The translations under genes and the position numbers were made by a program. Shown here piece after piece: positions 6,419 to 54,145 of a stretch of 64,000 nt of DNA; the first letter of the stretch is position 1, and the number at the start of each line of letters is the position of its first letter. This stretch comes from Moniliella sp. 'wahieum' (Eukaryota): assembly GCA_003971905.1 (NCBI GenBank), contig RSEE01000004.1:1116001-1180000 (forward strand), written 5' to 3'. A model generated the notes under the pieces. The model worked only from the letters and a program-made list of their open reading frames with translations, ran no database searches and was not told where the DNA came from.

Positions 6419-7136
6419 TCTGTCTATACCACGACCGTTTTTCGGTCATCTCGCAAAATGGGGAGATGGACAACGAGATGAGTGTGACGCCACACTGGTA
6501 TAGTCGGCGCCGGTAGCCCAAGCCCGAAACCTTTTTCGGTTCATTCATTCCAATATTCCTTCCTGTGCAGGGCAGGAATCCTCTCTAGCCTCTGTAGCTC
6601 ATGTTATGCAAAACACCATCAACTGCCTGCTCCCTGGCCTCCTATAGAGAGGCCCTATTTATTAGCTACATGAGATGTCGTACGAGCTGGATTTCTGTGA
6701 AAAGAAAGCGATCCGTGTCTACAAACCAGGACGCAGGCCACCTCACCAAAAAAGACCAACTCGGAGAGCGCCTGAGAGATCCCAGAAGTTTTAAAGCGGC
6801 CTATTCCATGATGTGCGTGAGGGTGTCGGCACTACAGAGTTGATTGTTCATCACCACTCAGGTGAACAGCATCTTTTACAGATGTGTTCATCAATCCGGT
6901 AAGCAGGCCGAAACTGTCTCTTACCCTCACATGCTCTGCGCGTACTCCAGACTCCACACAAACATTCCTCTCTTCGATAATGCTTTATTCGTTTTTCGTT
7001 CCCCATCACGGTCCATATGGTGGCCGCCACAGTGTCTCTTTCGTTCCCCCTTTACCCGTCGTGGGCGTGTTGACATATACGGCCATTTACGACCCCAAAA
7101 GACACTTCCATCACCTTTGACCCAGGCTGAATTTCT

Positions 7137-7376
7137 GCATCCATATCATTGACAGAGCTTAAGGCTGTGGAACGGAGAAACGCTACGCCTAAACGGACCC
7201 ATTCATCTTGCGTGTGCTGCCTGATATATTAACACCAACCCCGTTTGAGGAACCAGAGGAATCGCCAGGGGATCAGGATCCTCTGGTGCCCGCCATCCCT
7301 TCCATACCCGAGATAGCGCGTGTGTAGATACGGATGAACGTGGTAGACATCAGAGCGAGGAACCATTTCCATTGAG
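7137..7376 (+). repeat. Dispersed ~240-bp repeat, copy 1
   Basis: Shares blocks TCATTGACAGAGCTTAAGGCTG, AACGCTACG, TCATCTTG, GGAACCAG, ATCAGGA and CGGATGAACGTGG-GACATC-GAGCGAGGAACCATTTCCA-TGAG with the reverse complement of 11959-12188, and the first blocks with that of 16745-16924. Confidence 0.9.
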
Positions 7377-7888: not shown

Positions 7889-9348
7889 TACATGCGACAT
7901 CGCTCCTGGCGACCCGCAACGCCTGCAACGCCTCAGGCGCCTGACCGGCCTGAGCGTTTAAGCCCACAGTGGCGTTGCACAGAGCTCACATCTGAGGTAC
8001 ACGTCACACAGGTATTTGTCTGTTAAGCGTCACGCGCGACGCGTCAAGCTCGTCAAGCTTCAAGAACTTGATTGCATTACCATATGCAACACTCAGCCCA
8101 CAGTCAATAATCGTACTCAATACTAATACTATCTTAAGTATCATGCCGATCTATGTACATCATGAAAATCCCTCGGCTGATCCATCCCTCCGCTCAGCCA
8201 TTGAATCATTATTCTTGTTTTTTCTGTCCGAAAAAGCACTGATTTTGGTTATTGGGTTAGTTGGGTACCCCTTTCATATAGTGTGGAGAATAACGCGCAC
8301 ACGGCATCCTTCCTCGCCCCGGGGTCTGGCATATGTGCGCGATGAAAATATAAAAACGGAGGGGAGGGATTAGCTTATCGGGACAATGGCAGAAGAATCA
8401 TCTCGCCGTGTTTTTGCGAACACCTATAGGAGTTTTGTCGCGCTCGGTGGCGCCGTTAGCGCGTCAGCGTTCTTTTTGGCCATACGCGCACGACGCATCT
8501 ATGCCTGTAATTCTGGGTGTTCTAAAGCTGCTGACGCAGCGCTGACGGTCGGACGCGGTCCAGACCGTCTACCTTTAACGAGAATCAATAATTCCATTGT
8601 GGTCACCGGAATGTATTATGGGAGGGGAGCATTCAATATTCTCAAGGGTACCCCCCGCCCGTTCGCACATGTATATACTCAATCCTTTTATCGACCTTAT
8701 CATTAAAAACGTTAAACATATACTAACCTCCTTTTTCAACGTTCATCCACTTTGCGCAACTGGTTAGTAGTATAGTAGTAAAGTCCCTGTCACCGGGATA
8801 ATGCGTAGCCCCCACACAGATCTGATATACAGTTGTCACCACACCAAAATGAGAGAGGTAATCAAAAGCCGTAAGGCTCTGCGACATGTGAGTGTCTCCC
8901 ACTCCCCCCCCCCCCAACAAAAGTCCTACTATATTGTACTATAAATAGCGCCAGCAGCGCGCATGGAGAGAGACGAATGAGACCGTAGATGGTGACATAC
9001 AGTTTTACCCCATCAGGAGTCGCCTGCGGTGTGACCTAATAACTGAACGAAGCGTCTGAGAGAGATGTCATATAGTGTCAAACTCTTCAGGAGGAAACAG
9101 GGAGGATGTGGACAGAAATTCAAACGGTTGGGTGTGTGTGAGGAGAGGTTTACACGGTCAATTCGAGCAAGGGAGGGGGACGGGTACGGGGAATAGCGTG
9201 CGGTGTGACGACGACTGGATATATGGCGCAAACACATAAAGGAATCACGGTGGTAAAATGGCCATAAGCAAAGCACTAAGAAAGATATTAAGTGTGGGAG
9301 TCAAAGGCATTAGGAGGTTGAATCGGCGAAAGCAAAAGGAGCTCAAGT

Positions 9349-10723
9349 TTATTCTGTTTCGTCCAATCCCCCGCCTTGGCCGCAAGGGGCTGAAGCGGGA
9401 GCACACGGCGGCAGCGACAGCATCTCCCTGAGCATGTCATAGTCTTCCTGCTCTGGTGCGGTGGTAGGGTCGTGACCATAAAAGGACCAGTTACATGGGA
9501 ATAGCGGGTTGTTCGTAAAAATAGCCTCCTGGGCCTGGCCGGTAATATTGGCGTCGTTCGTCATGCGGTGGGGGATGACACCGAGAGTGTGTTGAAGTCT
9601 TGGTCGATCGGAGAATCCAGTAGGGAGACAAGATTCACCCCGCAGCCGCGAACATGTCTGCAAATGACGTATCTTCAACGCTACTTGCCTGTTGGAAGGT
9701 TGGAGTAGATGTGTCGTGGACCAGGCCCAAGCCTGGCCCTGTTTCGTTCCTGCCGGCATTGATGCCAGGATGGTTTACAATTTGGATTTTGAAGAATGCT
9801 TGGAGTCGGAACTGGAGGGAAAAAGGGATCCACATTGGTGAGGATGGGCCACGGAACAGAGGGCTGGGTGTTGGGGAGAGCATCATAGGTTCCATGGGAA
9901 ATAAGGGTGAGTTCTCTAATGGAGTAGTGGAAGAGCTGAAAGGGAACGTGGAGCCGGCTCTGCATGGGGTGAAAATGACAAAGTGGATGCCGGAAAGTGG
10001 GCGCATGCGGACCCTGCTGAGTCATGAGTGGCTTGACAAAGGCTGGGATGGGCTGCATTTCAGGCTGAGATACAGGAATATGCTTCTTTTGCATTTCCTG
10101 TTGCGTTTTCTGCCGTCGAGCATCACGGTTGCGCTGCCGTGCCTCCAGCCGGGCAATCTTCCTCTGCCCCTTCAAGCCGTGCACGGCGCATCCGTCTGGT
10201 TTCCCCCCGGGCCTGCTGGACCTTTTCCAAGGCAGCCCTATCGTGTCCTAGCTGGCGCAGAGCCAAGTCGGCATAAGCTAGTGTCCGTGTCTCCAGTGAT
10301 GAGTCGGGTGAAGCGCCTGGTGGAACTTAGCTGACTTTACTGATGAGGGGCTCTTGCGTGTAGAACGCGAGGATTTGGGTGCTTGAACTTCCAGTTGGGA
10401 TAGAGGCGCGCGTGCTCCCTCCCCTTTTCTTCAGCCCGAGCATGCCACTCACGCCGCTCGGGGGCTGGAAGATTGTGCCATACCGCTCTCAGGATCTGAG
10501 ATGCGTGACTCATGTGGGTGACTTGAGGCAACTCATCCGACTTAAGGAACCAGGAGCGGAAGAGCATGAAGGCGTTGGGAGGTCGTTTGATGTGCCCCGG
10601 CTCCCGTTTCTTCTTCGCATGGGATTTCTTGTGGACAGTAGACCCCCCCTTCTTGCAGGTCTCCAATGCTTTGCTGGGTGATGTATGAGAAATCAGTGTC
10701 TTATCGGAGCTGGTACTGCACAC
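9349..10723 (-). CDS. MATA/SOX-type HMG-box transcription factor with a low-complexity C-terminal region (boundaries uncertain; 5' part may extend to ~11129)
   Basis: SHAKKKREPGHIKRPPNAFMLFRS...SQILRAVWHNLPAPERREWHARAEEKGREHARLYPNWKF is a canonical HMG box; downstream minus-strand ORFs 9349-10184 likely continue it via frameshifts or introns. Confidence 0.85.
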
Positions 10724-11958
10724 AGACCCGCGCCCAAGCCAGGCGTTTTCTCCTTCCCCATAATCGCGCTGCAGAGTATGGATCGTCAGTATTTTCTTTC
10801 GTTGGCTGAATCAGGAGAGGATGCCCACTTACTATGAGCGCGGGTGACCAAGACGGAGAAAAGTTTAGAGTCGACGCGTGGGCCTTTGGGCAGCCCGTCC
10901 ACAACCGTACATGGAGGGGACGGCATGATAATGATGGGCGTCGAAACGAGAAGAGGAATGGGTTGAATAGGGTGTTGATGGCGGAAGGAGGGGAAGAAGG
11001 AGATGTTGATAGTGGGGTGCGCTTCGGCAGCAAGCGACATATATATATGCCGTGATGATACGGATCGGCTGGGAGACCATCCCACCGTCCGAGAGTCACC
11101 GTAGTAACCCCCTTTACGCTATCATCCATTATTTCTGACGGCCTGGCTGTGTGTTATATACATGTTATAGGACAGAGGTGTCGCAACGGGACGGGAGAAT
11201 ATGGAGATGCCGTGCACAACGCCAGAACGTATAGCATATCGCACCCTACACAGACCCTGGCTCCGGCCCAGGGACCATCAACAGTTGCCACGCATGCGTG
11301 TGTAGTATATTGCGGGGAAAGCATGCACACTGACAACAGGGAGCAAGGCACACACACTGTGATCGATGATTGGTTTTGGCGGGGGTTGTCGGCGCGCGTC
11401 CTCCACACAAATACTGTTTAGTAGCCTCGGGCCCTGAGGGAGATCCGAGGGCTTGAGGCCCTGATACCTAACGCTTATAGGCCTGGGCGCCTGAGCGGCC
11501 TGAGCGCCTGAGCAACCTGAACCCCAGAAGGCTCAGCTGGCCAGGAAAGGGACTTCGTGCATCGCCAGAAGGGACTCCGGGGGTGCCGAAAAGTGTGAGA
11601 GTATAACATAAAAAATCACCGATAACGCGCTCCCGTTTTACATTTTGCTCCTGCTGAGGCTGACGCGCTGACACGTCGCGGTGACACACACCAGTCAACG
11701 TCTAGTTGCATTTCCTCATACCGCTCTTGTTGCAATATGCCGCCAAATCGGTTGGCAATGCCGGCATAAATCTGTGGCTGCAAACCGTTTTTTTCCTCCG
11801 ACGTGATATTATTAGTGCTGTAATTTAACATATAAGCCTACCTACCCTGTGGCAAGCGCCCGGTTCTGGGTCTAACAAGTTAAAAGGGGCGGGGTCATGC
11901 TATTAGGTCAGAACTTGGGAACGACCTCTCTGTTTTATAAGGAGTTGGCTACCAAGTC

Positions 11959-12188
11959 TCAGTGGAAATGGTTCCTCGCTCGGATGTCAACCACGTTCAT
12001 CCGTGTCCATACGCGCTTCCTAGGGTACGGGACCGGATGGCGAGAGCCGGAGGGTCCTGATATCCTGGCGATACCCCTGGTTCCTTGACTTAGTGGCGCT
12101 TCCAAGTAACCCCCGCAAGATGACGGTTCGGTTTAGACGTAGCGTTCCCCCTGTCCCAGCCTTAAGCTCTGTCAATGAAATGGACGCG
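11959..12188 (-). repeat. Dispersed ~240-bp repeat, copy 2 (inverted relative to copy 1)
   Basis: ctcagtggaaatggttcctcgctcggatgtcaaccacgttcatccg...cagccttaagctctgtcaatga is a diverged reverse complement of copy 1. Confidence 0.9.
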
Positions 12189-12236
12189 GAGTAGACGATG
12201 TAACGGGTGGACGAGCCGGGAAAGTGGTCATGTGGT

Positions 12237-12633: not shown

Positions 12634-12706
12634 TTGAAACGTTGAACGTCAACTGACCAATGACCAGTGACCGCTGACCGCTGACCGCTGACCGGTGACC
12701 GTTGAA
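12634..12706. repeat. 7-bp-period TGA-N4 array
   Basis: TGA CCAA TGA CCAG TGA CCGC TGA CCGC TGA CCGC TGA CCGG TGA CCGT TGA. Confidence 0.85.
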
Positions 12707-12967: not shown

Positions 12968-13243
12968 GGCGTCACGCGTCAGCGCCACTGAGGCCCTTGA
13001 ATGAAGCTTGAAGCTTCAACTTGAAGCTTGAAGCTTGAAGGATGATCGATGATGCATGATGTTGATGATGCAGATGCATGATGCATGATGCATGATGCAT
13101 GACATGTGACATGTGACACGTGACGCGTGGACGTCACACGTGTCAAACCTTGGATCTTGGGCCAGAGTCTCACGCTCACTGAGCTCAGGCTCAGTACTCA
13201 GTGCTGGTACTGATTGAGCGAGCACTGAGGCGCTGAGCTCCAT
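12968..13243. repeat. Long compound 7-bp-period palindrome array upstream of the symporter gene
   Basis: TGA AGCT TGA AGCT TGA AGGA TGA TCGA TGA TGCA ... (TGA TGCA)n TGA CATG TGA CATG TGA CACG TGA CGCG, then TCA GTAC TCA. Confidence 0.9.
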
Positions 13244-13659
13244 TATCGGTTAATGATTGCCTGCATTAATCAAGTTTACGTTTATATTAATCGGTTTAAA
13301 TTTAAATTCATTTAAATTTAAAATTTAATCCTACTCGATATCCACACGAATTTCCCGCACAGTGCCCCTCCGCTGGACTGACGGCGTGTGGCCTGTGGCA
13401 TGTGCCCCCTGTTCCTGTTTGCGGCGGGCTGAACGTTGAATCGAAGCCGCATGGCGCCTGCCTCCATCCCAGGCATTGGGCCGAGATGCTGAGAGAAACA
13501 GCGTACAAAATTCACCGCCACCGTTATCCCTTCCTTTTCTCCACCGCCTACGCCTTTGCCTCTCCCCATCGCCTCCTTCGCCCACTCTTCTTCCTGCCTC
13601 CCAGCAACCGCCAACCGCCAACCACCCCCCTCACGACTGCGTGCACGCGCTTCGCCTTC

Positions 13660-16471
13660 ATGACGCAGCACCTCACCACATCCCAGGGCAATGCCCTGGT
13701 CTACTCCACTCTGGTCGGCTTCATGTTTGTTGGCCTCTTTGCCGGCTGGCATGTGAGCCGTAAAGACTACATCTCAGGCGTCCGCACCCAAAGCAGTATG
13801 TTCTCTCCCCTTACTTCCTGACGTTGTGTACGGTGTGGATATTGACATTTTTCTTTTCTCATCCCCTTTCAGTTATCCCACTCACATTGAATTGGATCGC
13901 ATCAAGTTAGTTTTCTCACATACCAGACCCGATGTTTTTGAGCACCAGGAACAGTCTGCGCCTTGTACGGACAAGGCATCCTCGTTTATCGGCAGTCATG
14001 GATCAAGGTATGCAACACGATTTTCATCCCGTTTTTTTTTGGCCTGAAGGGGAAAGTGCCTCGGCACGTAACCCTCGCTCGACACGCACACTAGGTAAGA
14101 GATGGGGCGGCCGCCGGCCAGGCTGGGTTTTCCTCCTGGCAGGGTTCTGCGGCTGCTCTGTCGCTGCACTCGTGCAGTTCACTGTATCTTGCCCTCTCCC
14201 TCTCCTATCTTCCTTCTCTCCTTTCTTGGACCCGAAGGTCCAGTTTGGCTTGGCTCATTGAGCCAAGTAAGTTATTGCTAATTAAGTTTGCAGCTACACT
14301 TCCCGACTTCGCCGTTGGGCTGAAAGCGGTCCCTTTGGATCTAGTCAAGGTGGACGGACGATGGGACGGAGCAGGCCAAGAACGGTGGACTCAGAGATGG
14401 GGGCTGGCCTCAGTAACCCCCTCTTTGGTGTCGTACACAGCCAGTTACGGGTGTCCTTCAGTTTAATGTCTGCCTGCATTTGTTCCTTCGGCGCAAAGCA
14501 AGTGACAAGGCTGTTGGGCTGAGATTATACCGTCATCGCTTTGGTCACTCAGGCCTGAGAGGTGATTCTCTTGCAGTGTCTGTGGGGCTTTTGCGATTGT
14601 ACCTGATCAAGTTCATGCTTGCGAAGGGATGCTGCGTTTGTGCACTTGGCAAAGGAGATGGTGTGGCCATTGGGGTACTTTGGGACACACCCTCTGCCAT
14701 CACTGGATTCCAGTTGGCCTGTTACCTCCCCTTGGTTCTCCTTCTCACCATCCTTCCCCCGTTCCCACTCTTGTTGTGACTTTGGGTTGGAGTTGGGATT
14801 TAACCCATCCCCTCCATCCCATTTGTCTTAACAGAGCTACTTGTGGGTTCCACGTGAACTGCATGGCTGACTTCCCTTGCCTGTTTTTCTGCAGATATGT
14901 CTTCGTCGCTTCTCTTTGGGTATCCCAACTCGCCGTCATCCCAGGCGCCGGGATCTTGGGGCTTGCGCGTACTCATTTGGCACAATTTTGCCTCTTTGGT
15001 TCTTCCTCTGGCTTGGACCTCAGATCCGAAAGTTGGCCCCTGAAGGCTTCGTCCTGAGCTCCTTCTTCCACAAGCGTATGGGTGGTTCTGGGCTGTCTAT
15101 CTGCTCTTTGCGTACGTTCTCTTCTCTCATTAAGAGGTGCAGTGTAAGGTATTGACACTCTTTACTCAGTTCGTCGGATTCATTTTCACGTTCATGCTGG
15201 TAGAGCTCAACACCTACGGGAGTGTTGTGAAACTCTTGGCGGTGTGGATCCCACCATCGGCTCTTGTGGTGGCTATCACGACCACCATCTATACGGCTTA
15301 CGGCGGGTTCCGTGCTTCGCTTTGGACGGACAATGTCAATGCTGTGGTGATCGTCATTCTCATGGTTATGACCGGTGCTGCTATTGGTACCAAACTTGAC
15401 ATCAGTCATGAGCGTATAATCGAATCGGGGTTGACCAAACCGCAATGGCTCGGCGCTAGCTTGTGGTGGGTCTTGCCCGCGGCGCTGGTCTTCAGTCAAA
15501 TGATCAATCAGGGCTTTTGGCAACGTGCCTTTGCCAGTAAGGATGACCGTACCCTCTTTTGGTCTGTGCTCCTGGCCAGCCCCATCTTGTTCGCCATCTG
15601 CTTCTTGGTGGGTATGACCGGCCCCCTGCCCAATGGGCAGGTCTGTTTAATGGACCCACCGATTCGATGATGGAGAGGACACCTTCTTTTACATTTTGGC
15701 TACCTTGCCAGCTGGGTGCAGGGCACCGTTTTGGTTCTTTGTGGTGCCCTGTCATCAAGTGCATACGATACATTCCAATCGGCTCAGATTTCAACCATCT
15801 ATGGCGACTTGTTTATGGGCAAGGTCAACATTTGGATTTGCCGGTTTATCCTTCCTCATCAATGTCCCCTCGGTTGTCTTGGCTGTCAAAACATCGACAT
15901 TCTTGAAGTATTTTCAGTGGCCGATCTGGGGGCCGCTTGCGTGCTTCCCGGTCCTCTGCTTGGTTTGATTCCAGCGCTTTGGTTCCTCAATGGGTTCGAT
16001 GTTTTTATTGGCGCTTGTGGCGGGTTCTTTACTGTCTTCCTCTTTGGCTTGGTCTTTTACAAGGGCGACGTGAAGGAGGCGGGTGATTTGATCGGCCTTC
16101 CCGACGGTCTTTACGTGGAGAACTACTCGGTCTTTGGTGCCTTCTTTGCTGCGCCTATTGGCTCGGTCCTTTGGACCTTTGCTGCGTTTTTGTTCCGTGC
16201 GGCAGGTATGTGGGTTGTCTGCCGTTACACCGGATGGGAGTACGATGTGTTTGACAAGGAGAAGCGCGCCCTTCGTCCCCATGAGTGGACCAACGACGAT
16301 GCTCGTCCGGTTGATCTGCAAAAGGAGGACGTTGAAGGTCAGCCGGACGTCATCCTCCCCTCATTCTCCCCGGACACCAAGCCTGACGATGCCATTGAGC
16401 CCGCTGGGTCTGATTCGAAACATCCCGGCATGGACGAAGAAGCAAGTCAGACATTGTCAAGGACGGCCTGA
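13660..16471 (+). CDS. Sodium:solute symporter family transporter (DUR31/NCU01977-like; probably for thiamine or a precursor). Exon 1 13660-13795, exon 2 13873-13905, exon 3 from 14895
   Basis: Spliced translation MTQHLTTSQGNALVYSTLVGF...GVRTQS|IIPLTLNWIAS|NMSSSLLFGYPQLA..., then TTIYTAYGGFRASLWTDNVN and QGFWQRAFAS; GT-AG introns 13796-13872 and 13906-14894 (branch gctgac at 14866). Confidence 0.88.
14442..14634 (+). ncRNA. TPP (thiamine pyrophosphate) riboswitch aptamer in intron 2 of the symporter
   Basis: P2 acgg(14447)/ccgt(14530); GGTG then P3 gtcc..cagttt/aggctg..gggc; conserved CTGAGATTATACC (14519-14531); conserved ACCTGATCAAGTTCATGCTTGCGAAGGGA (14601-14629) with P5 caagt/gcttg; weak P1 cagt/gctg. 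Confidence 0.92.
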
Positions 16472-16744
16472 TTGCTGGCCCTCCCGAGCTATCCCGAACC
16501 TGATTCCCCCCCTTCGGTGTTTCATCTTACGCCCTTCCTTGAAACCCCCCCTATTCTCCTGTCCCATCCGTACTTCTCCCTGGCCTTGACTGAATCACAG
16601 ACTACTACCCCTGCCCTCTTAGATCTTATGTCGCAACGTGGTTATGAGCTGTAGGATTGCGGAGGCGATGTAGTTATATGTATGTGGACGACGTATGATG
16701 GAGAAGCAACGATAGTAGGATGAAGCTGATGAAGGGAGCCAGGC

Positions 16745-16924
16745 AGGCGCGCTACCTTAGGTGTGGGAACGGATGCCGGGCACCAGAGGGTCCTGATCTC
16801 CTGGTGGTTCCCTGGTTCCTTAAGCGGGGTTGGCGCTATCAAGCAGCACACCCAAGATGAATGGGTCGGGTTAGGCGCAGCGTTTCTTCTCCCCCAGCCT
16901 TAAGCTCTGTGAATGATATCGATG
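16745..16924 (-). repeat. Dispersed repeat, copy 3 (truncated, ~180 bp)
   Basis: cgcgctaccttaggtgtgggaacggatgccgggcaccagagggtcctgatctcctgg...caagatgaatgggtc...cagccttaagctctgtgaatgatat aligns with copies 1 and 2. Confidence 0.88.
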
Positions 16925-21200: not shown

Positions 21201-21815
21201 ACTTTGGTCTGAAGACACTCTATAAAAATGATAAAAGGGAAATATAGAGAGAGAGAGCTCTAAGAGTTGATATGCTGGCTCACATACAACAGGCAGAATG
21301 GGAAGGGACTGACGTATGTATGTGCAGATAAATGTAGAGACCAGAAGACAAAAGAGGAAGCTATCACGCGTTTTCACAATGAGTACGGATAAACAGTATG
21401 AAATGGGGCCCCGATCAATCATGTATATGGTGTGGTGTTCTGCGCTATCCCGCGTGTGTTGCGGTGCGTTGCGGTATGTTGCAGTATGTTTTGCGGTGCA
21501 CTGTGGTGGATGTGTGTGGCATGTTCATGAAATGTCGAGAAAGAGCAGCACTTATTGCTTGAGTGCGGGGAGGAACAATCTTTATTCAAGAGAAAAAAAG
21601 AAATGGTAAAGTGCAAAAGAAGCAGGGCAGCACACTCTGTCTCATTCACAACGCTACTAAGTACTAAGGATGCTTCGCTTACACACCCACAATAGCAGTC
21701 GGCCTGTCTCTTCCGTACCTATGCCATGATGCAGATCGATGAGTACTCGATGAGTAGAGGATGTATATGGGACGCCGAATCTCCGAAAACACGTATCGCC
21801 GCTGCTGGCCAAGTA

Positions 21816-21866
21816 TTACATTTACATGTTACATGTTACACCAGCTTATATTTTGTAACATGTAAC
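21816..21866. repeat. ACATGT-T/A heptamer array
   Basis: ttacatttacatgttacatgttaca ... tgtaacatgtaac. Confidence 0.75.
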
Positions 21867-22998
21867 CCGAGAATTTGGCATACGTGGATGCGCCAGACAT
21901 ACGCAGCCACATGCCTTTTGTATTGCCTTCGTGTGTCTGTTCATATTGTCAAACACCACACATGCATTTACACACTCCACAATGCCCTTCGTCTCTCACT
22001 CGCTCCGTTGTACCCACCGCAGGAGCGATTTTCCTCTTCTTCCTTCGCTAGTTATGGCTTTAGCGCTTATCAGCAAGCGTTTCGACCCGTGTTGTACTAT
22101 GTGTATGCATATACAAATAGTACCACCGCGTGGCTCATGCTTTGGCTAACGTCCCTTCAGTTCCTCCTCAGGTCTAGGAGTTCCGCTGTCTTCTCTCGGT
22201 TTTTTCCTTTTCTGCAGATTAGCCCCTGGTGGCGAGTCACTGCTTGATGTTCCTCTGTAGGTGTTACTGGTTGGCTTAGACCACTACCACCACACTAGTG
22301 CGATTGCATCACTCTCGAGGACCATCCAGACTCCAGAGGTCTCATCAAGTAGTAAGTGCTATTGTGCCGTAACCACCTGGCGAAGCGGATGGCCCCTGCT
22401 TCCTCTCGCTGCCTTTGCCTGATTAATGATTCTGGATGCTGCTCACATGACGCTCACATCGCTTATTTTGCTATTGTGCTGCTATGGTGACTGGCTTCAC
22501 CGGCTGTGAGACACTTCCGTCCCACTCTAGCCCCTGAGACTCTGCCGACTCCGACGGCTGTGGTGGCGCGCATGTGGCCACGTATTATAAGCCAGAGGGA
22601 CTATTAGTATAATTATAGCCTTCTCCTGTATTATAACCTCGTCCCCTGTTTCCTACCACCGACGCCTATCTCTCGCCCACAATCGATCGCCTATAGCCTG
22701 CGGTCATATACGATTTAGTATCCATTTCGGTCTCCATATCCGGGTTATCAGGATGTCGCTAATACAGTTGGTCCTTTTGTGCCCCGGGCGAGTTGCATGA
22801 TGCATGATGCATGGGACCTGTGTTTGAGCTTTCGGAAAAGATCAGGAACTTAATGGAGATGGACCACATATGTTACGGGGCCCCAGATGACATGTGACAT
22901 GTGACACAAGGGAGGTGATATGTTTGTGCGTACCGGAAGATGGCACACGAGAGAACCACCGCAACTGTCATGGGGGAAGTACCGAGGTGGTAACCCCC

Positions 22999-23562
22999 TG
23001 TAGTTTAGGGGTATAAATATAAACCCTTGGACAGGTCAATCGGTGTATCGTACCTTAGGTTCTGCTCCAGATCCTGGTTAAACCGAGCGGGTGTAGAGGC
23101 GAGGGAGAGACCCTCTATTAGTTTGGGTGGCTGCCTGCGTGCAAAGGCCGCAGCTCAGACCCTCCGAGATAGGAGCCGCGTACGTAGGTCGTTAGACCAG
23201 TTGAAGGGGGCCAGGGCTCCGAAGTTACTCTGTTCCTCACAGCGTTACTACACTCGGTACGCTGTAGTAGGCGGGAACAGACAGAGTCCTAAAGAAGAGC
23301 AAGCGCTACTGATGCATGATGAGAGTAACCGCGGCTTGCAGCGTACTCGACGTAAGTCGTAAATTCGTAAGCGTAAAGGGTGTGGTAGAAGATGGAAGGG
23401 CGAGAGAGGAACGGGTAGTCGTGGAGACCAAAGAGGAGACAGGATAGTCGACAAGGACCACAGCTAGGAAGCCTTAGACATGGCTGCTTTTATATACAAC
23501 AGAAGGAAGCAGGCCTCAAGTGCCTCATGACAGGTATAGACAGAATGTGGGTTAGGGTTACA
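22999..23562 (-). mobile_element. Probable solo LTR remnant
   Basis: TGTA...TACA inverted termini, minus-strand TATATAAAAG box (~23487-23496), strong purine/pyrimidine strand skew; no target-site duplication found. Confidence 0.4.
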
Positions 23563-24452
23563 CTTTCCTGTGAGGCAAAGACTAATGCACAACAGCCCAT
23601 GCTTTAATTTGACTTCTTGGGAAACAAAAGCACACAGAATGCGTCAAGAACTTGGCGTATATACCATGGATACCATCCCAGCACTGCAGAAACCTTTCTT
23701 CCTCCTATATAGTGAGCGCCTATAGCCCCATGCCTCACTGGCCGAGTTCAGACTCAGCTGGCACCGATGCGCTCGATGCTTATTAACCCCAGTGTCTCCA
23801 GTGTCTCTCTCAGATCCCACATATTGTGACCGGTGACCGCGTCAGCCAGAGCCCGGAGGCCCTGAAGTTCGGACTCAGCGCCCTCGTTGAACGTTGATGA
23901 ACGTTGAACTGGCTACGTTCGGTGCAACAATGTCAGTTGTGGATGAAAACGTCATACAGGGGGGGTAACCGGTAAGGATGACGACGAGTGTGTGTGTGGG
24001 GAGCGCCTTTGTGCACTTTTGTATCGCTCACTTGCGTGGCTGGCGCATACCACCATCTCGATAGCAAAACAGCCAAGCACATCGCAGCTGTACCTCGCTC
24101 TTCCTTTGAGCCATGGTAACGGAGCATCACTTTCGAGATGACCTCAGTCTCACTCATTTTCATACCCGGCACTGGCCTGCGTCCCTGCCCTCCTCTGTGG
24201 TCTGATGGCCGGTATCGCCCTCTAAAGCGACTCTGGGCTGTGGACTGACCGGGCTCAGTAGGAATCCCGGGTGAATCATCTCTCTTGGACGCTATCGTGC
24301 TGTGTCCGGAGACTGACGCCCAAAAGGTATGACGTTCACCGTTGTGTGAGAGATAATACCAAAACAGATGGATCAACATTCACTCCATCAGCCCCTCTCT
24401 TTCTTCCATATAGCACCCACACCACCATCATCACCACGTTTTCTCCATCATA

Positions 24453-26680: not shown

Positions 26681-26776
26681 AGGCTGCAGCCGGGATCGAA
26701 CCGACGACCTGCGGCAACTACAAGTCTGGGGCATGCTCGCCGAAGACCGCCACTCTGGCCACTGAGTTATGCAACC
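26681..26776 (-). tRNA. tRNA-Arg(TCG) with a ~23-nt intron
   Basis: Minus strand GGTTGCA TA ACTC AGTGGCCA GAGT G GCGGT CT TCG G [intron] T GCCGC AGGTC GTCGG TTCGATC CCGGC TGCAGCC T, followed by a T-run terminator; the isotype assumes a canonical 37/38 intron. Confidence 0.85.
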
Positions 26777-30776: not shown

Positions 30777-32599
30777 ATCAGTCTTTTTGAGTGGCTGTGC
30801 TGACTCCCGTGGTAGGCACCATCTTCCAATTTCAACACTGATTTTTCCCAAAACGTGCGTGGTCGGCACGGTTCAACCGTATATGACTTGCCGAGATCCC
30901 GCTCGCCTGGGTCACCTCGTCTGTCCTTCCATGCACTCAAATACACCACATACACCCTCCCGGTGTACACTACGGCGGAAAAGGCGCTCAGATGAAGCTG
31001 ATGAAGTCCCTTCATAGAAAACAGCCCGGTCAGGTTGGAGACGCTTGCTCCCAGTTTTCTCTCCTCCAGCAGCACATTGCAACTAGGGTGAAGACCAATA
31101 ACGCTGGCAGAAAGTTATATCCCGTCCCTATGAATCAGCCTGCACCGATTACTGCTATGCCAGCTCAATGAGGTGGTGGCTAATGGGTAAGGCGTCCATG
31201 GCCAGTAGGCGAAGTCACGACTTCATACTGATTGAAGCACCTCTGTTCCAGAAAATTGCCCTGCAGAAGCCCGCATCTAACACATTGCCCAAACAGGCTC
31301 GACGGACAGGTATAGCGGGGACAAAAGTTTGGGGATGAGATGTTACCATGCTAAGGAGAAGAAGGGCTGGTCATTCCATGGCTGAGACCATTCAGATATA
31401 GGCCGCAAATGGGACAATGAACACCGTAGAAGGCATCAACGCATTCAACAGAGCGGTGTTTTTACCTTGTATGCAGGGCAGCATACCACATGCACCACAA
31501 GATCATGCCTCAAAGAGGTCCTAACGCAGTAACGCGGGCGAAATTATAGTACAGTGAAAAGAACACGTGTTTCTATGGCGGCGACAAATCTTCCTCTGAA
31601 AGCCCTTCTTGCAGCTCCTGGAATACTTTTGCCGGAGTATCAACAACGGCGGCGACAAAATGGAAGGGTTGCGGTCCAGAAGCGTTTGGATGAAGTGGTG
31701 CATCATGAACATGAATGAGGTAATGGTACGGGTGATGATGGGACCAGGAGACCTGATGGCCTTCGAGGGGGACGCGATCGCGATCGCGATCGCGGTGGCG
31801 GTGGTAGCAGTGTTAAACGTTAATCTTACCAACAAAACGACCCTGCCTGTGTCATACTTTTGGCTGATGTCACTCTCATTTCCGATTTTTCATCCCAAGC
31901 GTCTCGCTTTCCCTGTTTCTTCCACTTCGCACGTACCATGTCCTCTCTGCTCTTGCTTCTTCCCCATGAACGACTACTACATCCTTTGACCTAGTCTCGA
32001 CTCTGGTCTCCCTCGCCTTAGCCCCGACTGTGACACTGCCGAAGGCCCTCAAGCTGTCACTATATGGTCAGGCCCTCTGTCAGATGTCAGCCCCCTTGAA
32101 GACGAAAGCGAATTCCGCGGAGCTGCTAATAAGCCTGAGGGACTGCAAGAGGCATCTTGGCCAAACGCCCAAGCCACACCATGCGGCTCCATAACGCATA
32201 ACCGCTTACGAGCGTGATGATATTTACTGGGAACAATCAATTATGCAACATCGAGTTATCAATCCGGCTCAGGGAAGACGGCAACCAGTTCCCGCAGCTC
32301 ATCGGTCCCTATACTTTAAGCGATCTGCCAGCACGTGCCCCGTCTACGGGCCTTATTGTGGGGGCCATGTGCGTGCTGTCAAACGCACGAGAGGTGCCAA
32401 GGTCCAAAGTGGAGGTGTGGAGGTGTCTGAGATCTGGGTGCGAACCATCAGTGCATCAGCACTTTTCTGGGTGGCATGTGCGTCAGTAAGGCCGGAGCCA
32501 GGTCTAGCAGACATCATCACCTCGGCTGCCTTATTATAGCCGTAGCCTCTATAGTCTTAGTCGAGTTTAAAGGTAAGCTGGTAATGAGGGAAGGTTTTA

Positions 32600-38221: not shown

Positions 38222-39532
38222 GAATCATATGGTTATTCACATAAAATACGATGCATGATGCATCGGTTGGATGTGCTTCTTCTGGGTCAAGTGCTGGTAG
38301 CAACGTGAAAACATGTACAGAAGATGTGTGTTGATGTTGTTAAAACGATAGCATCAGGGGTGCAGGCGTTTGTTGGTTCCATTTATGGGCCAAGGTGGGG
38401 TTGGGTGCGCCGTCATTCTTTGATGGGCTCATTAATTGACGAGCTAGCGCAGGAGCCGGGCACGGGTATTGCTACACCTCTCGTCGCAAAGAGGATGTCA
38501 CTGCCGCCAAACATGGTTTGATCAATGCGTGGTGGAGATCACACATGTACAGCGCAGGGGGGTTCGCGCATGCAATCCATAATCCCCAAAACCGACAGAG
38601 AGAAGATGTGGTGTGGCATGCACGAGGCGCAGGAAGGGTCTAAGAGAGGGACGAGATCAGACCGTCGGTAGCCTGCACTCACGGCCAGTCAGTTCTACCT
38701 CTATATCGGGCTGCAGAAGATGACCATCACTGCACGGCGCATGTTGGGCTGCATGGCGGTGTTTCCGCTGTCCGCACAAGGTGGACCAGCCACCTAGTAA
38801 AAGACAATGCAAAAATGCACCCAGGATGCCCGACTGGGAAGCGGAGGCTGGGCACGTCGCCCTGGTCCGGGTGAGTAGAAAGCGAGGGAGGCGAGAGAGG
38901 CGGTAGTAAGAAGGAAAGGCCATGCGAGCGGGCAATAAGGGGGACTGCTGCGTACATGCGCGCGTGGCTTTGCCCGATCCACATCACGTGATGTGACAGT
39001 CGCCGATCCGATCTCAGCGCCTCGGCAGACTCGGCGTGCGGGGACTTTGTTGGGGCGACGTGGAGCGTTTTGAAAAACGGAAACGCGCTGAGGCTGAGGC
39101 TCAGCGCCCAGACTGAGCAGCTGGTAGGTGGCACCCGGTGGCACTTCGTGGCACTTGGGGCATGGTCTTGCCCGCGACGCGCGTTTCACACGCCTAGTGC
39201 GAGTATGCACACTTTGGGGCACAGTGGCTTGGTGCTGGCTGCCCAGATGGCCTTAAACCGGCAAGGGCGCGCGACGGGTGATCCATGGATGATGTGGGCG
39301 GCACCTGAGCTTTGCATGGGGCTCGCATCGGTGATGCTCGATGCATGATGCGCCGCATGCGGGCTCTGGCTCAGTCTTGGGCTCAAGCAGCAAGTGTGGG
39401 CCGCAAGGTTGAACGTTGCAGACGTTGAAGACGTTGAAGCTTCACGCCCTGTCGTCCTGTTCTCCTCGAGCCCCCACCACCACTCCGCTTTGCCCTGTCC
39501 ATCCTTCTCCCGGCCCTCGTGCAGGTGTGATC

Positions 39533-47191: not shown

Positions 47192-47473
47192 TGCCCTGGT
47201 GCCTGGCTGGGATGTTCGGTGTCACGCGTGTCACAGGCTGCTGATGGCGCTGATGGTGCATGATGGTGCTCGCTCACCGCAAGGCTGAGCCTGAGCCACA
47301 GGGATGATTCATCCGTGGCGTGAGGCGCTGAGGCCCAGCGCTCAGCCTGAGCGTCATCGCGCTCTCGATTCCATCGCGCCCCGCACCCGATGATGCGGGC
47401 GGCATTGTTCCAATGTTCAATTCGATTCGCGTTGCGCATTGGGACAGCGCACCCGGAGAGGTCCTCGTGGCCA

Positions 47474-47580
47474 TCATGCATCATGCATCATGCACGAGAA
47501 GTGCTGTGACATGTGACATGTGAGAGAATCACTGCTATCCACTCGCACTTGATGGGTCACCGGTCAGCCTGACCGGTCAG
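47474..47580. repeat. Compound heptamer palindrome array
   Basis: TCA TGCA TCA TGCA TCA TGCA; TGA CATG TGA CATG TGA; TCA CCGG TCA GCC TGA CCGG TCA. Confidence 0.85.
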
Positions 47581-50500: not shown

Positions 50501-50735
50501 CTATGGCACTGCATGAGTCTGACATCTCCGTCCATCTTTCTGTTTTCACCATCAGTCTGCGACTGCATCTGCACACAAGACTGAAGCATAAAGCTTGAAC
50601 AACTTGAACAGCATTTATTGACCCCAGCTCGACAATACAACATATGATATGCTAGCTGATAACATGTTGTAACACTTCAAGGGATCTTCAAGCTTCATAC
50701 TGAAGCTTTATATCAAACACGTTCACAACTTTTGA

Positions 50736-51584
50736 CCTATAATAGCAGGTGCAGCCCACGGACGTTATGTCTACAGGACGCTATGTCTACAGGACACTCT
50801 GTCAACAGGACACTCCGTCAACAGGACGCTATATGTCAACAGGACGCTAGGGAACGGTGGTTGCCGTGGCTCCGGTGAACGATCACACAGTTGGACAATG
50901 GAATGGTCGGCAGCAGAACGGTTGTTAAGGTATCAACGCTGTCCCATAGAACGGTGGCCAAAAAAAGGTGACAACGACGGAATGGTGGCGATGGTTGGGA
51001 CGACGGAACGGTGGCGAAAGTGGCGACGACGGACGGTTGCTACGGTGGCCCATCCTACCCAAGGAGAGAATGCCAGGGTGGCTCGATGACGAAGCAACAG
51101 CCAAGAGCAGGCGCCTCACTTCCATCGGCAACCCAGCCCTCGCTCTCCATCTTCTGATATGTCAAGTACGGAATGCACTCTGAGCCTGGGCAGCCTTTCG
51201 CCCACCCGATTCTCTGCGTGACACGCCAGCCACGCCTTTCTGTTCTGACTCCCTTGTTTTCCTGCTGACAACGGAACGGCATGCTACGCCGCACTGAAGA
51301 TGATGGAATGTTAACCTATGTCGCATGTTGGAGTCTCTGTTAACAATGGAATGGTGGACAGTGGGGATGGTGGGGAAAGAGGCCTATGGGAATGGTGGAC
51401 CAACAGGGGGTAAGGGGCATATGCATATGAAAGGGTGTGGACTATAGGGGTTAAAGATGGCCGCGTGTGTTCGTAACCAATTAACACGGAGGAAAGCTGG
51501 GGCGAAGCCCCAGCCCTTCAATACAGACGCACGGTAAAAGCATCAGGAGTACGCATACGGGCCATAGGCCCGGTGGTCCCCTAG
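50736..51584 (+). mobile_element. Non-autonomous Helitron-like element (5' end uncertain)
   Basis: 3' hairpin CGGGCC-ATA-GGCCCG (51558-51572), 8 nt, then CTAG followed by T; second hairpin gctggggc-gaa-gccccagc (51496-51514); internal 16-bp tandem array and repeated GGAAYGGTGG. Confidence 0.65.
50761..50848. repeat. 16-bp minisatellite, ~5 copies
   Basis: gacgttatgtctacag / gacgctatgtctacag / gacactctgtcaacag / gacactccgtcaacag / gacgctatatgtcaacag. Confidence 0.9.
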
Positions 51585-53794
51585 TGGCGAGATATCTCAC
51601 ATTGGTTGAGCGCTCTCTCAGACTCACAGATCTCAGATCTCAAAAACAGATCTCATTAATCATTTCCAATTCCTGTTGCTCGTCCGCCTCACTCTCTTCC
51701 TTGGTTACCCTCTCGCCTTCGCTATGTGTCTTCTTTCTGCTCCTGCTTCTCTCCCGCGTTTATTGTGCTACACCGGGGCCTTGTCGTTACTGTTGTTCTT
51801 TTCTTAATCGCCCCCGACGGATCAGTTTTGTTGCGTGACGCGTGATGAGAGCGGGAGATGTCCTGTCACATGCATGCCAATGTCACATGTCCCATGTCTC
51901 TGCATGCCACATGGTACTCGACTACAAAGTCTCTCACTTGGGACATCCTTCTGTTACATGCATGCATCATCGACATCGATATCGATCCTCCTTCGCTTCT
52001 TGCACTTCATGCAATGCACATGGTGCCATTGGCGCCTCGGTCTCAGATCTCAGCGTCAACATCACCGGCATCACCAACCTCTTGGCATGAGCATGAGGGC
52101 TGGCACCGAGAGCACACCATATATAGCCAGGAAAACACAGATATGTTCAATGGTGGGCACCCACTCACTATACTACACGTACTACACGTACCACCCTGTC
52201 ACTATATCATTAGGCTTTGAGGGAAAAAACATGATTCACCACGGAACATCAATCAAGGGCACCACCACTTTGGTCATCGGATCATCTCATTTAGTCTTTA
52301 AAAACTCCACACTCTCTTGCGGCCGCGGTTGTCCACACTTTGATCTACATCGATGATCACGTTCATCACGCGTATCGCCGATACCGTGTAGGCCAGACCG
52401 TAGGTCTCGGGCTCAGATCTCATGCGCTCATGCCCCCCTCAGGACCAAGCAATACAAGTCAAGATTCAATAGCGGCTGCGTCAGACCTTCCTATTACCTC
52501 CATCTCCAAGGCTGGTATTGTGGAGCTAACAGGTAATTGCTAGAATGGCCCTTTGAATATTTTAAACTTTGAAAACAGACCGAGCAGCGTTGATTTCATG
52601 TTTCTCCCCGGTATTTTAATCGGGGCGAAAAAGCAATCTTGCGCCTGGAACAGGATCGCTGGGAGCCGATGGCCCGACACAGGCGCTGTGCAGATCCCGC
52701 CGAAGAAACTAGCCCGCCTTGGCCGCGCGTACCGAAGCAGTGCCCCCGTGCGGCTGTATGTGGGATGGGCGAGCGCGAACACCTGGATTCTTGGCTGTGT
52801 CGCTAGTCCAGTGCGGTGCGCGGGGAAAGGGAGCAGCCACTTTGGCGCCAACTGCATGCCGATCCAAATGTGCCGGCGCAAAGCGTGCCAATGGCCTTGG
52901 GCTCAGGGGGAGACTCAACTCAGACTGAGTCACTGCGTGCGAAGTGGGACATGCCCACCCTTGTGGGTTTGCAAGGACTGGCCGATATTACTTGCTTCAG
53001 GCCTAGCTTCTCTGGCGTTTTCAGCATGTCTTTCACCACCCAAAGTTGCAACGTGGATGGCACTCAAGCTCAAGAGTGCGCTAGTGCTTACGTTGGGTTG
53101 GTCTGCGTAGGCGCGAGAGGAATGGTTTGGATATTGTTCAATGCTGAAATGTTCAACTTTCACGTTCGTTCAGCGCTGGTGTTCATCACGCGTCACGTTC
53201 ATCGATCATCGATCATCGCCGACGGAGAGCACTGTGATTATTCGCGCAGACATTTGCGTGCTTACATGCATTACACAACGTTGCAACCCGAAAAGCAGGG
53301 CAAGAAACGGGCGGCAGAAGGTTGCAGAAGGCCAGCGCAGAACGTCGAAGGTGTCTGCGCGAGTGCGGGTGCAACGTACAGGAGGCGATCGTGCTTCGCA
53401 GGCGCGCGCGGGGGCTGGCCGTTACAAATCAATCGCCGGTTCCCAGGACGGAAGGGCAGAAAGTTGGATGGGCCCTGGAGGGGCTGCTGATGCGCTGGGG
53501 CGAGAGCTGCGCGGTGCTGGGGTGATATAAAACAAGCGGAGTCGGAAGCCCGACGTGGTTTCCAAAAGGAGCGTATACTGCGCTAGTGCTGCAGTTGCGG
53601 TTGAACAGCACGGCGCTTGCCCACGCGCGCACGGCCGGTACGGGTGGTGAGGCCTGAGGCTGGGGGCCTGTCCCGGTTGGTTTGGGGGCTTCCCAGGGTG
53701 CTTAGCTGCCGTGAGGCACTGGAGCGCTGCCGCGCCCAGGCACTCAGGCGTCACGCGTCAAGCCTCAGACTGCCGATACGCGTTAGAACTGGCG

Positions 53795-53829
53795 TCACAT
53801 GTCACATGTCACACGTCACGCGTCAGGCC
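53795..53829. repeat. TCA-phased heptamer palindrome array upstream of the GT32 gene
   Basis: TCA CATG TCA CATG TCA CACG TCA CGCG TCA GGCC. Confidence 0.88.
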
Positions 53830-54145
53830 GAGGCGGCCGCCCGTGTCCTGGGCCAGTGCCGGGGCCAGAGTGCCGCTGCCTGCGCAGGCACGCCGGCCCA
53901 CAGCGGCCAGATGCGGCTTGCCGCGCGGGGCAGCGCCAGCGCAGGGTCGTAGGCTTTAGGTACAGGCGCAGAAAGTGGCGGCACACAGATCCACCGTCCT
54001 GCATTTTTGCATCTGGCCCGCACGTCGCCTTTTGCCGGTTGGCGGCAGCCCGTAGCCTCGCGCCTCAGCCGCAGGCCGCAGGTCAGGATTCAATCACCTC
54101 GCCTCTTGCCCTCTCCCGTCCATCGTCTTTCTCGGCCACACCACC

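Follow-up and report, generated by a model that had tools for sequence, protein, structure and literature searches.

The tract at positions 12968-13243 of the analysed window, a 64-kb stretch of contig RSEE01000004.1 from Moniliella sp. 'wahieum', parses into nine scars or scar arrays once a single grammar is applied. The founder form of this grammar is a 12-bp sequence, X-m-X, with a copy of the pentamer X = T-N-A-x-y on either side of a dinucleotide m that is reverse-complementary to x-y. Longer arrays have the form X-(m-X)n and measure 5+7n bp. We interpret the tract tentatively, and with somewhat less than even confidence, as a pile-up of stereotyped break-and-repair scars, each combining a 5-bp staggered duplication with hairpin-derived P nucleotides. 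Such scars would have been left by the insertion or excision of a transposon that forms hairpins on its flanking DNA, or by a host nuclease of the same chemistry, and would have been extended in 7-bp steps. The anatomy of the scars, their statistics, polarity and junction-length spectrum, their restriction to T-N-A, their non-coding location and their specificity to this genome were observed directly.

The anatomy was established in a survey of all maximal lag-7 identity runs that hold an A....T palindrome (n = 86). The most frequent run length was 12 bp (21 runs), followed by 11 bp (18), 13 bp (15) and 14 bp (12), with a steep fall beyond. Starts were concentrated at core position c3 (27 runs) and at T (20), and ends at A (23) and at core position c2 (24). 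Two mirror registers of the seven possible, T..c2 and c3..A, included 16 of the 21 12-mers and all four (4/4) 19-mers of the class. For the 13-mers, 17 of 15+ register cells match the T..c2 or c3..A form plus one base. These fixed boundaries, together with the 12-bp mode, therefore identify X-m-X as the founder and 5+7n as the length of the arrays.

Other event models were rejected. A 3-bp T-N-A duplication with 2 nt from each element end predicts T-N-A-bounded forms of 10 and 17 bp, and register T..A was found in 0 of the 86 runs; this model is also contradicted by an extension that is missing in only 3 of 41 same-spacer singletons and by cores that are not constant per family. For a symmetric 7-bp duplication of an odd palindrome, register c3..c2 occurred just 3 times and c4..c1 never. 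A 4-bp palindromic target with a T-S-A remnant was discarded as well, register c1..c4 being seen once.

A strict X5-m2-X5 test, in which mismatches were required outside the repeat and m had to complete the palindrome, returned 30 instances versus 4.4 expected, and X was T-N-A-n-n in 15-16 of these, about half. Most other strict combinations were near background or few (L4g2, 15 versus 18.4; L5g3, 2 versus 1.5; L4g4, 1 versus 0.6) or gave very few instances (L6g2, 4 versus 0.9; L6g3, 1 versus 0.2). Raised counts were obtained for L6g1 (20 versus 3.5, including +1 extensions of 12-mers), L4g3 (12 versus 4.1), and L5g1, which corresponds to period 6 (33 versus 16.2). Repeats of T-N-A-n-n at gap 2 numbered 119, as compared with 5.4 expected, and the intervening dinucleotide was of the P type in 96 of them. 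In each of the other 15 frames, P-type gap-2 repeats numbered between 0 and 10. Sorted by junction length, the independent loci comprised 8 with no P base (P0; 4.7 expected), 13 P1 (1.3), 53 P2 (0.47), 3 P3 (0.10), and one P4 (0.02). This distribution resembles what variable opening of a hairpin end would be expected to leave.

The initial annotation of this DNA had described the repeat unit as an A....T hexamer palindrome plus one base. This holds for 32 of the 43 exact period-7 arrays of at least 14 bp (binomial p ~4e-41), and the spacer base in these 32 is G or C in 26 and A or T in 6. Only 2.6 such period-7 arrays were expected from 20 Markov-1 simulations. Arrays of other periods were also present (period 6, 54 versus 12.6; period 8, 11 versus 0.6; period 9, 8 arrays), with palindromic units in 5/54 at period 6 and 0/11 at period 8. 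The enrichment of palindromic cores that the same annotation anticipated is clear: T-N-A-N4-T-N-A 10-mers with a palindromic N4 were counted 100 times versus 8.6 ± 2.8 in 100 Markov-3 simulations, and those with a non-palindromic N4 143 times versus 127 ± 12. The palindromic fraction of N4 is 0.41 in the T-N-A frame and 0.04-0.09 in the other 15 frames. In the core-length test (pal2, 30 versus 30; pal6, 5 versus 1.8; pal8, 3 versus 0.6), only the 4-bp core was counted as enriched. Pairs of hexamer palindromes exactly 7 bp apart number 31 if they begin with A (0.5 expected) and 2, 0, and 0 if they begin with C, G, and T. All 16 palindromic tetramers are used as cores, AGCT being the most common (18/100), and the spacer bases across the 10-mer are identical in 83 of 100 cases (2.6 expected) and complementary in 11 (2.5 expected). 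An unbiased ranking of over-represented 7-mers recovered the same words. Outside the lag-7 runs, single-copy forms are at background, with 180 versus 188 for T-N-A-centred palindromic 7-mers and 204 versus 206 for A....T hexamers. The excess is thus confined to the duplicated state.

The 100 palindromic 10-mers of the window form 66 clusters, of which the tract at 12968-13243 is the largest; the scar class to which it belongs has about 50 loci in the 64 kb, or about one per kb. Coding DNA is avoided. Long ORFs, which span 58% of the window, contain 16 of the 66 clusters, and self-trained predicted coding segments contain 2 of the 83 identical-spacer 10-mers. The orientation of the scars showed no consistent strand relation to neighbouring genes, and scars occur both upstream and downstream of them. 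An origin of the arrays as copies of one dispersed element was rejected, because self-BLAST found no flanks shared among them; the sole array-to-array match was the array itself.

The clusters are unevenly spread. Two non-coding stretches of ~2.5-3.5 kb, 21600-24000 and 50600-53850, hold eleven clusters each, with spacers mostly G in the former and mostly C in the latter, and the final 10 kb of the window has zero clusters. The second of these stretches also carries minisatellites at 50760-50849 (16-bp unit, 5.5 copies) and 50974-51037 (26-bp unit, 2.5 copies).

Heptanucleotide arrays as such are widespread, the STRR heptamers of cyanobacteria being another class of 7-bp tandem array. Control DNA was taken from metagenome loci found in a scan for four AAGCTT+S units (121 loci, ~687 kb). 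Like those of the window, the arrays of these contigs are short and non-coding, related units are often adjacent, and spacers were homogeneous in 119 of the 121 loci. Unlike in the window, the units of the 238 other period-7 arrays in the control loci were a palindrome plus one base in just 13 cases and of the A....T type in none. The X-m-X signature was at background in the controls (88 versus 579, ratio 0.15), and the corresponding ratio in the window was 0.63. The density of T-N-A founders is 25 per 100 kb in the window, as compared with 1.2 per 100 kb across the 687 kb of unrelated controls, and GC-matched control DNA (294 kb) contains a single founder. Since 7-bp arrays are common in the control DNA and the A....T rule is lacking there, the X-m-X grammar is particular to this genome. 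A cyanobacterial STRR origin was rejected, the window being fungal as judged from a chitin synthase, an intron-bearing tRNA, and an eIF4A whose nearest relatives are basidiomycete proteins.

These results also bear on an explanation without any site-specific break, namely slippage of self-complementary heptanucleotide microsatellites, in which looped-out hairpins (5-bp stem, T-N-A triloop) would favour expansion. The arrays are indeed tandem, made of head-to-tail single-unit copies in all 43 exact period-7 cases, with homogeneous spacers, and 7-bp arrays are frequent in other organisms. The segment 12995-13145 folds as a single strand at -36.7 kcal/mol, as compared with -19.5 ± 2.2 for 200 shuffles (z = -7.7), with 5-bp stems and T-N-A loops; for short single arrays such z-scores are uninformative, because shuffled repeats stay self-complementary. 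In addition, 14-bp forms number 12 versus about 4 that we estimate from chance extension of 12-mers, so that some whole-unit duplication or slippage also happens. However, a microsatellite born by slippage should show whole-unit copy numbers and random boundaries, and what was found is a 12-bp mode, two preferred registers, and 5+7n lengths. Prior to the event, a founder 12-mer offers no structure that could fold. Hairpin stability leaves unexplained why the outer pairs are A....T only, why palindromic units of 6 and 8 bp are not amplified, and why junctions of 1 and 3 bases exist, and the rule is lacking in control DNA rich in 7-bp arrays (0/238). Moreover, structured repeats stall polymerases, which constrains expansion, according to the abstract of PMC7441554. 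Slippage as the source of the pattern is therefore unlikely in our estimation, in keeping with the initial annotation, which was right that simple slippage cannot account for the palindromic cores.

Within the tract itself, the sequence does read as TGA+N4 units, as initially described, with the cores AGCT, AGCT, AGGA, TCGA, TGCA (several), CATG (twice), CACG, and CGCG. In the 7-bp register, TGA-AGCT units are followed by one TCA unit, TGA-AGCT again, TGA-AGGA, TGA-TCGA, a run of TGA-TGCA, two TGA-CATG, TGA-CACG, and TGA-CGCG. The regular portion of the interval is 12969-13129, and tandem repeats were reported by TRF at 13002-13142. The right third (13145-13243) has many TCA and TGA words, is irregular, and contains one class member (13190-13202). 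The 7-bp phase, initially described as largely retained, is preserved within blocks only; the 12 T-N-A/palindrome 10-mers fall into three phase groups offset by 1. The following scars and arrays were recognised.

12969..12981, founder-type scar CGTCA-CG-CGTCA: a 5-bp direct repeat around 2 nt that complete ACGCGT, with one further matching base at the left (lag-7 register c2..A)

13002-13016 and 13020-13040, two TGAAG-CT arrays, with one TCA unit and a 1-nt phase shift between them

13041-13052 and 13050-13061, overlapping founder scars GATGA-TC-GATGA and TGATG-CA-TGATG, with one TGA in common (lag-7 runs 13041-13053 and 13049-13061)

13073..13102, TGATGCA array, the longest homogeneous one (~4.3 units), folding into 5-bp stems with TGA triloops

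13100..13118, 19-bp array TGACA-TG-TGACA-TG-TGACA of the 5+7n form, in register T..c2 (starting at the T of T-N-A and ending after x-y)

13119..13129, scar CGTGA-CG-CGTG(G), adjoining the preceding TGACA array, the seam yielding an apparent CACG core

13190..13202, isolated scar TCAGT-AC-TCAGT (+1 base) in the irregular right portion

The overlap of the GATGA and TGATG scars on one TGA would be expected if a single T-N-A can be used once per strand. The cores AGGA and CACG, initially described as intermediate cores, proved to be seams between adjoining scars and not mutational intermediates. The former consists of AG from the end of the TGAAG array and GA from the start of GATGA-TC-GATGA; the latter of CA from the end of the TGACA array and CG from the start of CGTGA-CG-CGTG.

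This resolution into an array end and the start of the next scar is exact, and it counts against a point-mutational walk, in which an ancestral array (e.g., ACGCGT+N) would decay by CpG transitions and hairpin-templated, quasi-palindrome correction would restore symmetry along the series CGCG, CACG, CATG. These three cores are joined by CpG-type transitions, and the series is present at two loci. The CpG observed/expected ratio of 0.86, the TpG/CpA value of 1.16, and a moderate enrichment of one-off cores with identical spacers (22 versus 7.4 and 14 versus 7.0) are also in line with decay. Nevertheless, such a walk yields neither the other cores nor the T-N-A frame and would cover at most a minority of the differences between neighbouring units. 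CpG decay may alter cores, but the pattern is not created by it, and as an origin of the pattern we hold it to be very improbable.

The initial annotation offered a protein reading TGA/TCA half-sites at fixed spacing (TGA-N4-TCA) as one explanation. This reading is removed by the identity of the spacers (83 identical versus 11 complementary), because the frame is a direct repeat and not a pair of inverted half-sites; neither the inverted half-sites nor the defined common core of a bZIP-type site was found, all 16 tetramers being present, and TGA and TCA show no consistent orientation to genes. In a broader form, the arrays could be selected cis-regulatory elements, i.e., sites of dimeric factors (bZIP-, APSES-, or bHLH-like) in promoters with palindromes kept by selection. 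Their intergenic location, the distance of about 420-690 bp by which the tract precedes a transporter gene, and the recurrence of word combinations at separate loci (TGCA with CATG; AGCT beside AGGA) are consistent with such a role, and some cores resemble known fungal promoter elements, e.g., of the ACGCGT type. No single transcription factor fits, however, because all 16 palindromic tetramers serve as cores. Scars lie downstream as well as upstream of genes with no preferred orientation, and single-copy versions of the motifs are at background. Selection for binding also does not predict 5+7n boundaries, templating of y'-x' by x-y, or junction-length variants. We thus rate selection as a distinctly unlikely origin of the arrays.

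Returning to break and repair, the proposed event would act on 5'-T-N-A-x-y-3' on either strand: the five bases would be duplicated and the copies joined via the reverse complement of x-y, giving T-N-A-x-y-y'-x'-T-N-A-x-y. A join of this kind would contain the hexamer palindrome A-x-y-y'-x'-T with one spacer base behind it and, at a distance of seven bases from the first, another T-N-A. Each further event on the copied target, or slippage from one 5-bp repeat to the other, would add 7 bp and so generate the 5+7n series. The change of cores along the tract would follow from use of the same T-N-A from the opposite strand, or of a T-N-A seven bases off, which would engage other x-y bases. An event with different x-y neighbours would then produce a new palindromic core in the same phase, which would answer the question of why each core is again palindromic.

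P nucleotides originate from off-centre nicking of a hairpin end that has been sealed covalently, and their hallmark is a palindrome abutting its template without a loop (x-y|y'-x'); polymerase fold-back would require a loop. When a cut with a 5-bp stagger is filled in, the result is a direct repeat with a fixed length of 5 bp. We infer that both processes took part here, i.e., that a 5-bp staggered cut was filled in, as in a target-site duplication, and that a closed hairpin end was opened about 2 nt from its tip. Candidate agents would be a Transib-, hAT5-, or CMCT-like cut-and-paste transposon with a 5-bp duplication, or a host nuclease. The second explanation put forward initially, a fold-back or template-switch process that regenerates symmetry, captures one aspect of this, since the palindrome is made de novo from x-y; long hairpins with one mismatch per 7 bp, acting by homogenisation, do not describe how the arrays arose.

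Hairpins on flanking DNA are formed by hAT, Transib, MULE, and RAG systems, and footprints are left by end joining, as outlined in PMC5499845. Footprints of Ac/Ds in Candida and yeast are reported in PMC5873905 to carry palindromic P insertions of two predominant types with species-specific P lengths. Duplications are of 5 bp for Transib (PMC1131882) and of 2-5 bp for hAT5 and the fungal CMCT elements, hAT7 being present in rusts (PMC12730594). The scars of Moniliella resemble flank-hairpin footprints (hAT Ac/Ds, Hermes, Transib, MULE) and V(D)J coding joints in that a short direct duplication of fixed length, here the 5-bp T-N-A-x-y repeat, stands on both sides of the junction. The junction bases are likewise the reverse complement of the adjacent flank end and belong to few predominant types within narrow lengths, here 1-3 with a peak at 2 (P1, 13; P2, 53; P3, 3 loci). 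Non-coding, gene-proximal DNA is preferred in both. Unlike flank-hairpin footprints, the scars are found without an element, receive additions from one end only, and are stacked into arrays. The palindrome is here centred between two bases, whereas the consulted description of Ac/Ds has it centred on the complement of the element-adjacent base. The 5-bp duplication is anchored on T-N-A, a feature not reported for Transib, whose targets are GC-rich according to PMC1131882.

Excision also provides a precedent for short tandem repeats of variable copy number. After Helitron excision, TA repeats can remain at the donor site in varying numbers (PMC10095026, citing Li and Dooner). In that case the unit is a dinucleotide, insertion is at A|T, and there is no target duplication, in contrast to a 7-bp unit with an internal templated palindrome. 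The 'palindromic microsatellites' of Fusarium mitochondrial DNA, given as (A)n-TATA-(T)n of intergenic regions in PMC7218506, have a similar name and a suggested mobility and are unrelated in structure. T-N-A-anchored palindromic heptamer arrays or an X-m-X signature were not found described in the full-text literature searched.

Tc1/mariner footprints consist of a duplicated target around a short insert that comes from the inverted-repeat ends of the element and is constant per family. They share with the present scars a duplicated target flanking a short symmetric insert. The insert in the scars differs from them in being templated by the target's own x-y bases and thus in varying from site to site.

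A number of observations weigh against the break-and-repair interpretation or against particular agents. The event is polar, because additions complete the palindrome at the x-y end (96 of 119 gap-2 junctions) and not at the T-N-A end ('..T.A' frame, 13 of 119). Symmetric two-hairpin excision would not predict this polarity, and the P nucleotides at either flank that a hairpin-transposon footprint would allow were not seen, only the x-y end acting as template. The excess of 14-bp forms belongs here as well. A search of the 64-kb window for terminal inverted repeats (TIRs) with a flanking T-N-A duplication returned nothing beyond a pair of mutually matching arrays; for TIRs accompanied by 5-bp duplications there were 10 matches versus 7 in a displaced control, none of them convincing. 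No transposase, integrase, or nuclease domain was detected in any of the 108 ORFs of at least 140 codons in the window. The hAT signature, i.e., junction bases complementing element-adjacent bases, was at chance (17/78 and 12/78). For Transib, PMC1131882 reports a preference for GC-rich targets, and not for T-N-A. There is also a second type of junction, in which gap-4 repeats with T-N-A-x-y flanks (period 9) enclose an independent 4-bp palindrome in 19 of 49 cases versus 0.4 expected, and such junctions are not explained by P nucleotides from x-y alone. Finally, all of the evidence comes from one 64-kb window.

A candidate element at 22994-23963, flanked by GGTAA, was rejected as merely a short inverted motif with no further element features.

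A variant with no transposon at all would be a host nuclease of this fungal lineage, or one derived from a domesticated transposase, that cleaves T-N-A sites with a stagger of 5 bp and closes one of the ends into a hairpin. Repair would duplicate the nuclease's own target and thereby produce self-feeding arrays in open intergenic DNA. We consider this version possible but rather unlikely. If true, it would represent an undescribed, sequence-anchored generator of promoter microsatellites and de novo palindromes.

An artefact of sequencing or assembly is very unlikely. A single exact grammar governs more than 50 separate loci, which have many different cores and are confined to non-coding DNA, and no kind of basecalling or polishing error known to us yields templated palindromic junctions.

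The DNA of the window is that of a eukaryote, a basidiomycete fungus, with short, overlapping ORFs. Pfam domains include chitin synthase, an eIF4A-type DEAD-box helicase, HMG box, sodium:solute symporter, P450, ORMDL, and ADH, among others. The best named matches of the eIF4A fragment are from Ustilaginomycotina and Tremellales (basidiomycetes), at 74-78% identity at most. Three identified genes are relevant to the setting of the tract or to the assignment of the window.

10340..10810, minus strand, HMG-box gene fragment (Pfam HMG_box, E = 2.9e-10), the nearest identified coding sequence at the left

13660..16468, plus strand, sodium:solute symporter gene (Pfam SSF, E = 2e-8), the nearest on the right

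26681-26776, minus strand, tRNA gene of 96 nt, the sole Rfam match in the window (47.6 bits)

The tract lies about 420-690 bp upstream of the symporter gene, whose putative start codon (ATG at 13660) was placed with the help of an open frame (13402-13821) and of coding sequence predicted at 13501-13788. The HMG-box ORF also matches the MAT-alpha HMG-box family below threshold (26.4 bits versus a cutoff of 28.1), and judging from these matches it may encode a regulator related to mating type or to the pheromone response, next to scar-rich intergenic DNA. The tRNA gene carries an intron, as follows from its length. Directly 3' of the tract is an AT-rich block of TTTAAAT-type 6/7-bp repeats (13265-13328), which holds an AAATTT+A class member at 13314-13328. 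A dispersed repeat of ~180-240 bp occurs in three copies that are 76-83% identical, at 7134-7376 (minus strand), 11958-12190 (plus strand), and 16748-16924 (plus strand). It has no obvious inverted ends or T-N-A duplication, and one copy is located ~800 bp upstream of the tract. The most over-represented 7-mer of the window is GTAACCC (14 versus 3.3 expected; sites at, e.g., 4727, 14068, 14413, 17502, 30030, and 58914). Being often preceded by exon-like sequence, it may be a preferred 5' splice-site extension. Telomere-like TAACCCT words are enriched in the window as well.

Several further loci illustrate the range of the class.

12653..12705, upstream of the tract, array of seven 7-bp units with constant TGACC and the junction dinucleotides AA, AG, GC, GC, GC, GG, and GT

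22888..22906, 19-bp 5+7n array (TGACA-TG)x2-TGACA, with further ones at 21822-21840 and 47505-47523

39413..39439, period-9 variant in which TGAAG, an independent palindrome ACGT, and TGAAG alternate in ~3 copies

53794..53825, TCACA-TG array followed by CGTCA-CG-CGTCA, a twin of 13100-13129 in its core order (CATG, CATG, CACG, CGCG)

In the array at 12653-12705, variation is restricted to the two junction positions and only one unit completes the palindrome, so the array looks like a product of junctional diversity, not of copying. The twin loci, of ~30 nt each, differ in that all spacers are C at 53794-53825 and G at 13100-13129; they are unlinked, and their flanks are not joined by self-BLAST. 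Arrays with TGCA and CATG recur together at 13073-13118, 22794-22906, and 47472-47523, and AGCT stands beside AGGA at 2908 and 13029. Further relatives of the period-9 form were noted at 8042-8055, 16719-16732, 30991-31004, and 47220-47233, and four loci (221, 4778, 11153, and 21739) combine the 2-nt completion with a second 4-bp palindrome in the junction.

If the break-and-repair interpretation is correct, the non-coding DNA of this fungus would preserve, at high density and in readable form, a history of site-specific breaks and their hairpin-type repair. Break repair would then be a source of repeat arrays and short palindromes in place of slippage, which would explain the recurrence of palindromic cores. 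Scars located in promoters and changing in length by 7 bp could supply regulatory variation. X-m-X is a simple signature that is searchable in any genome and could reveal hidden transposon activity or a new nuclease.

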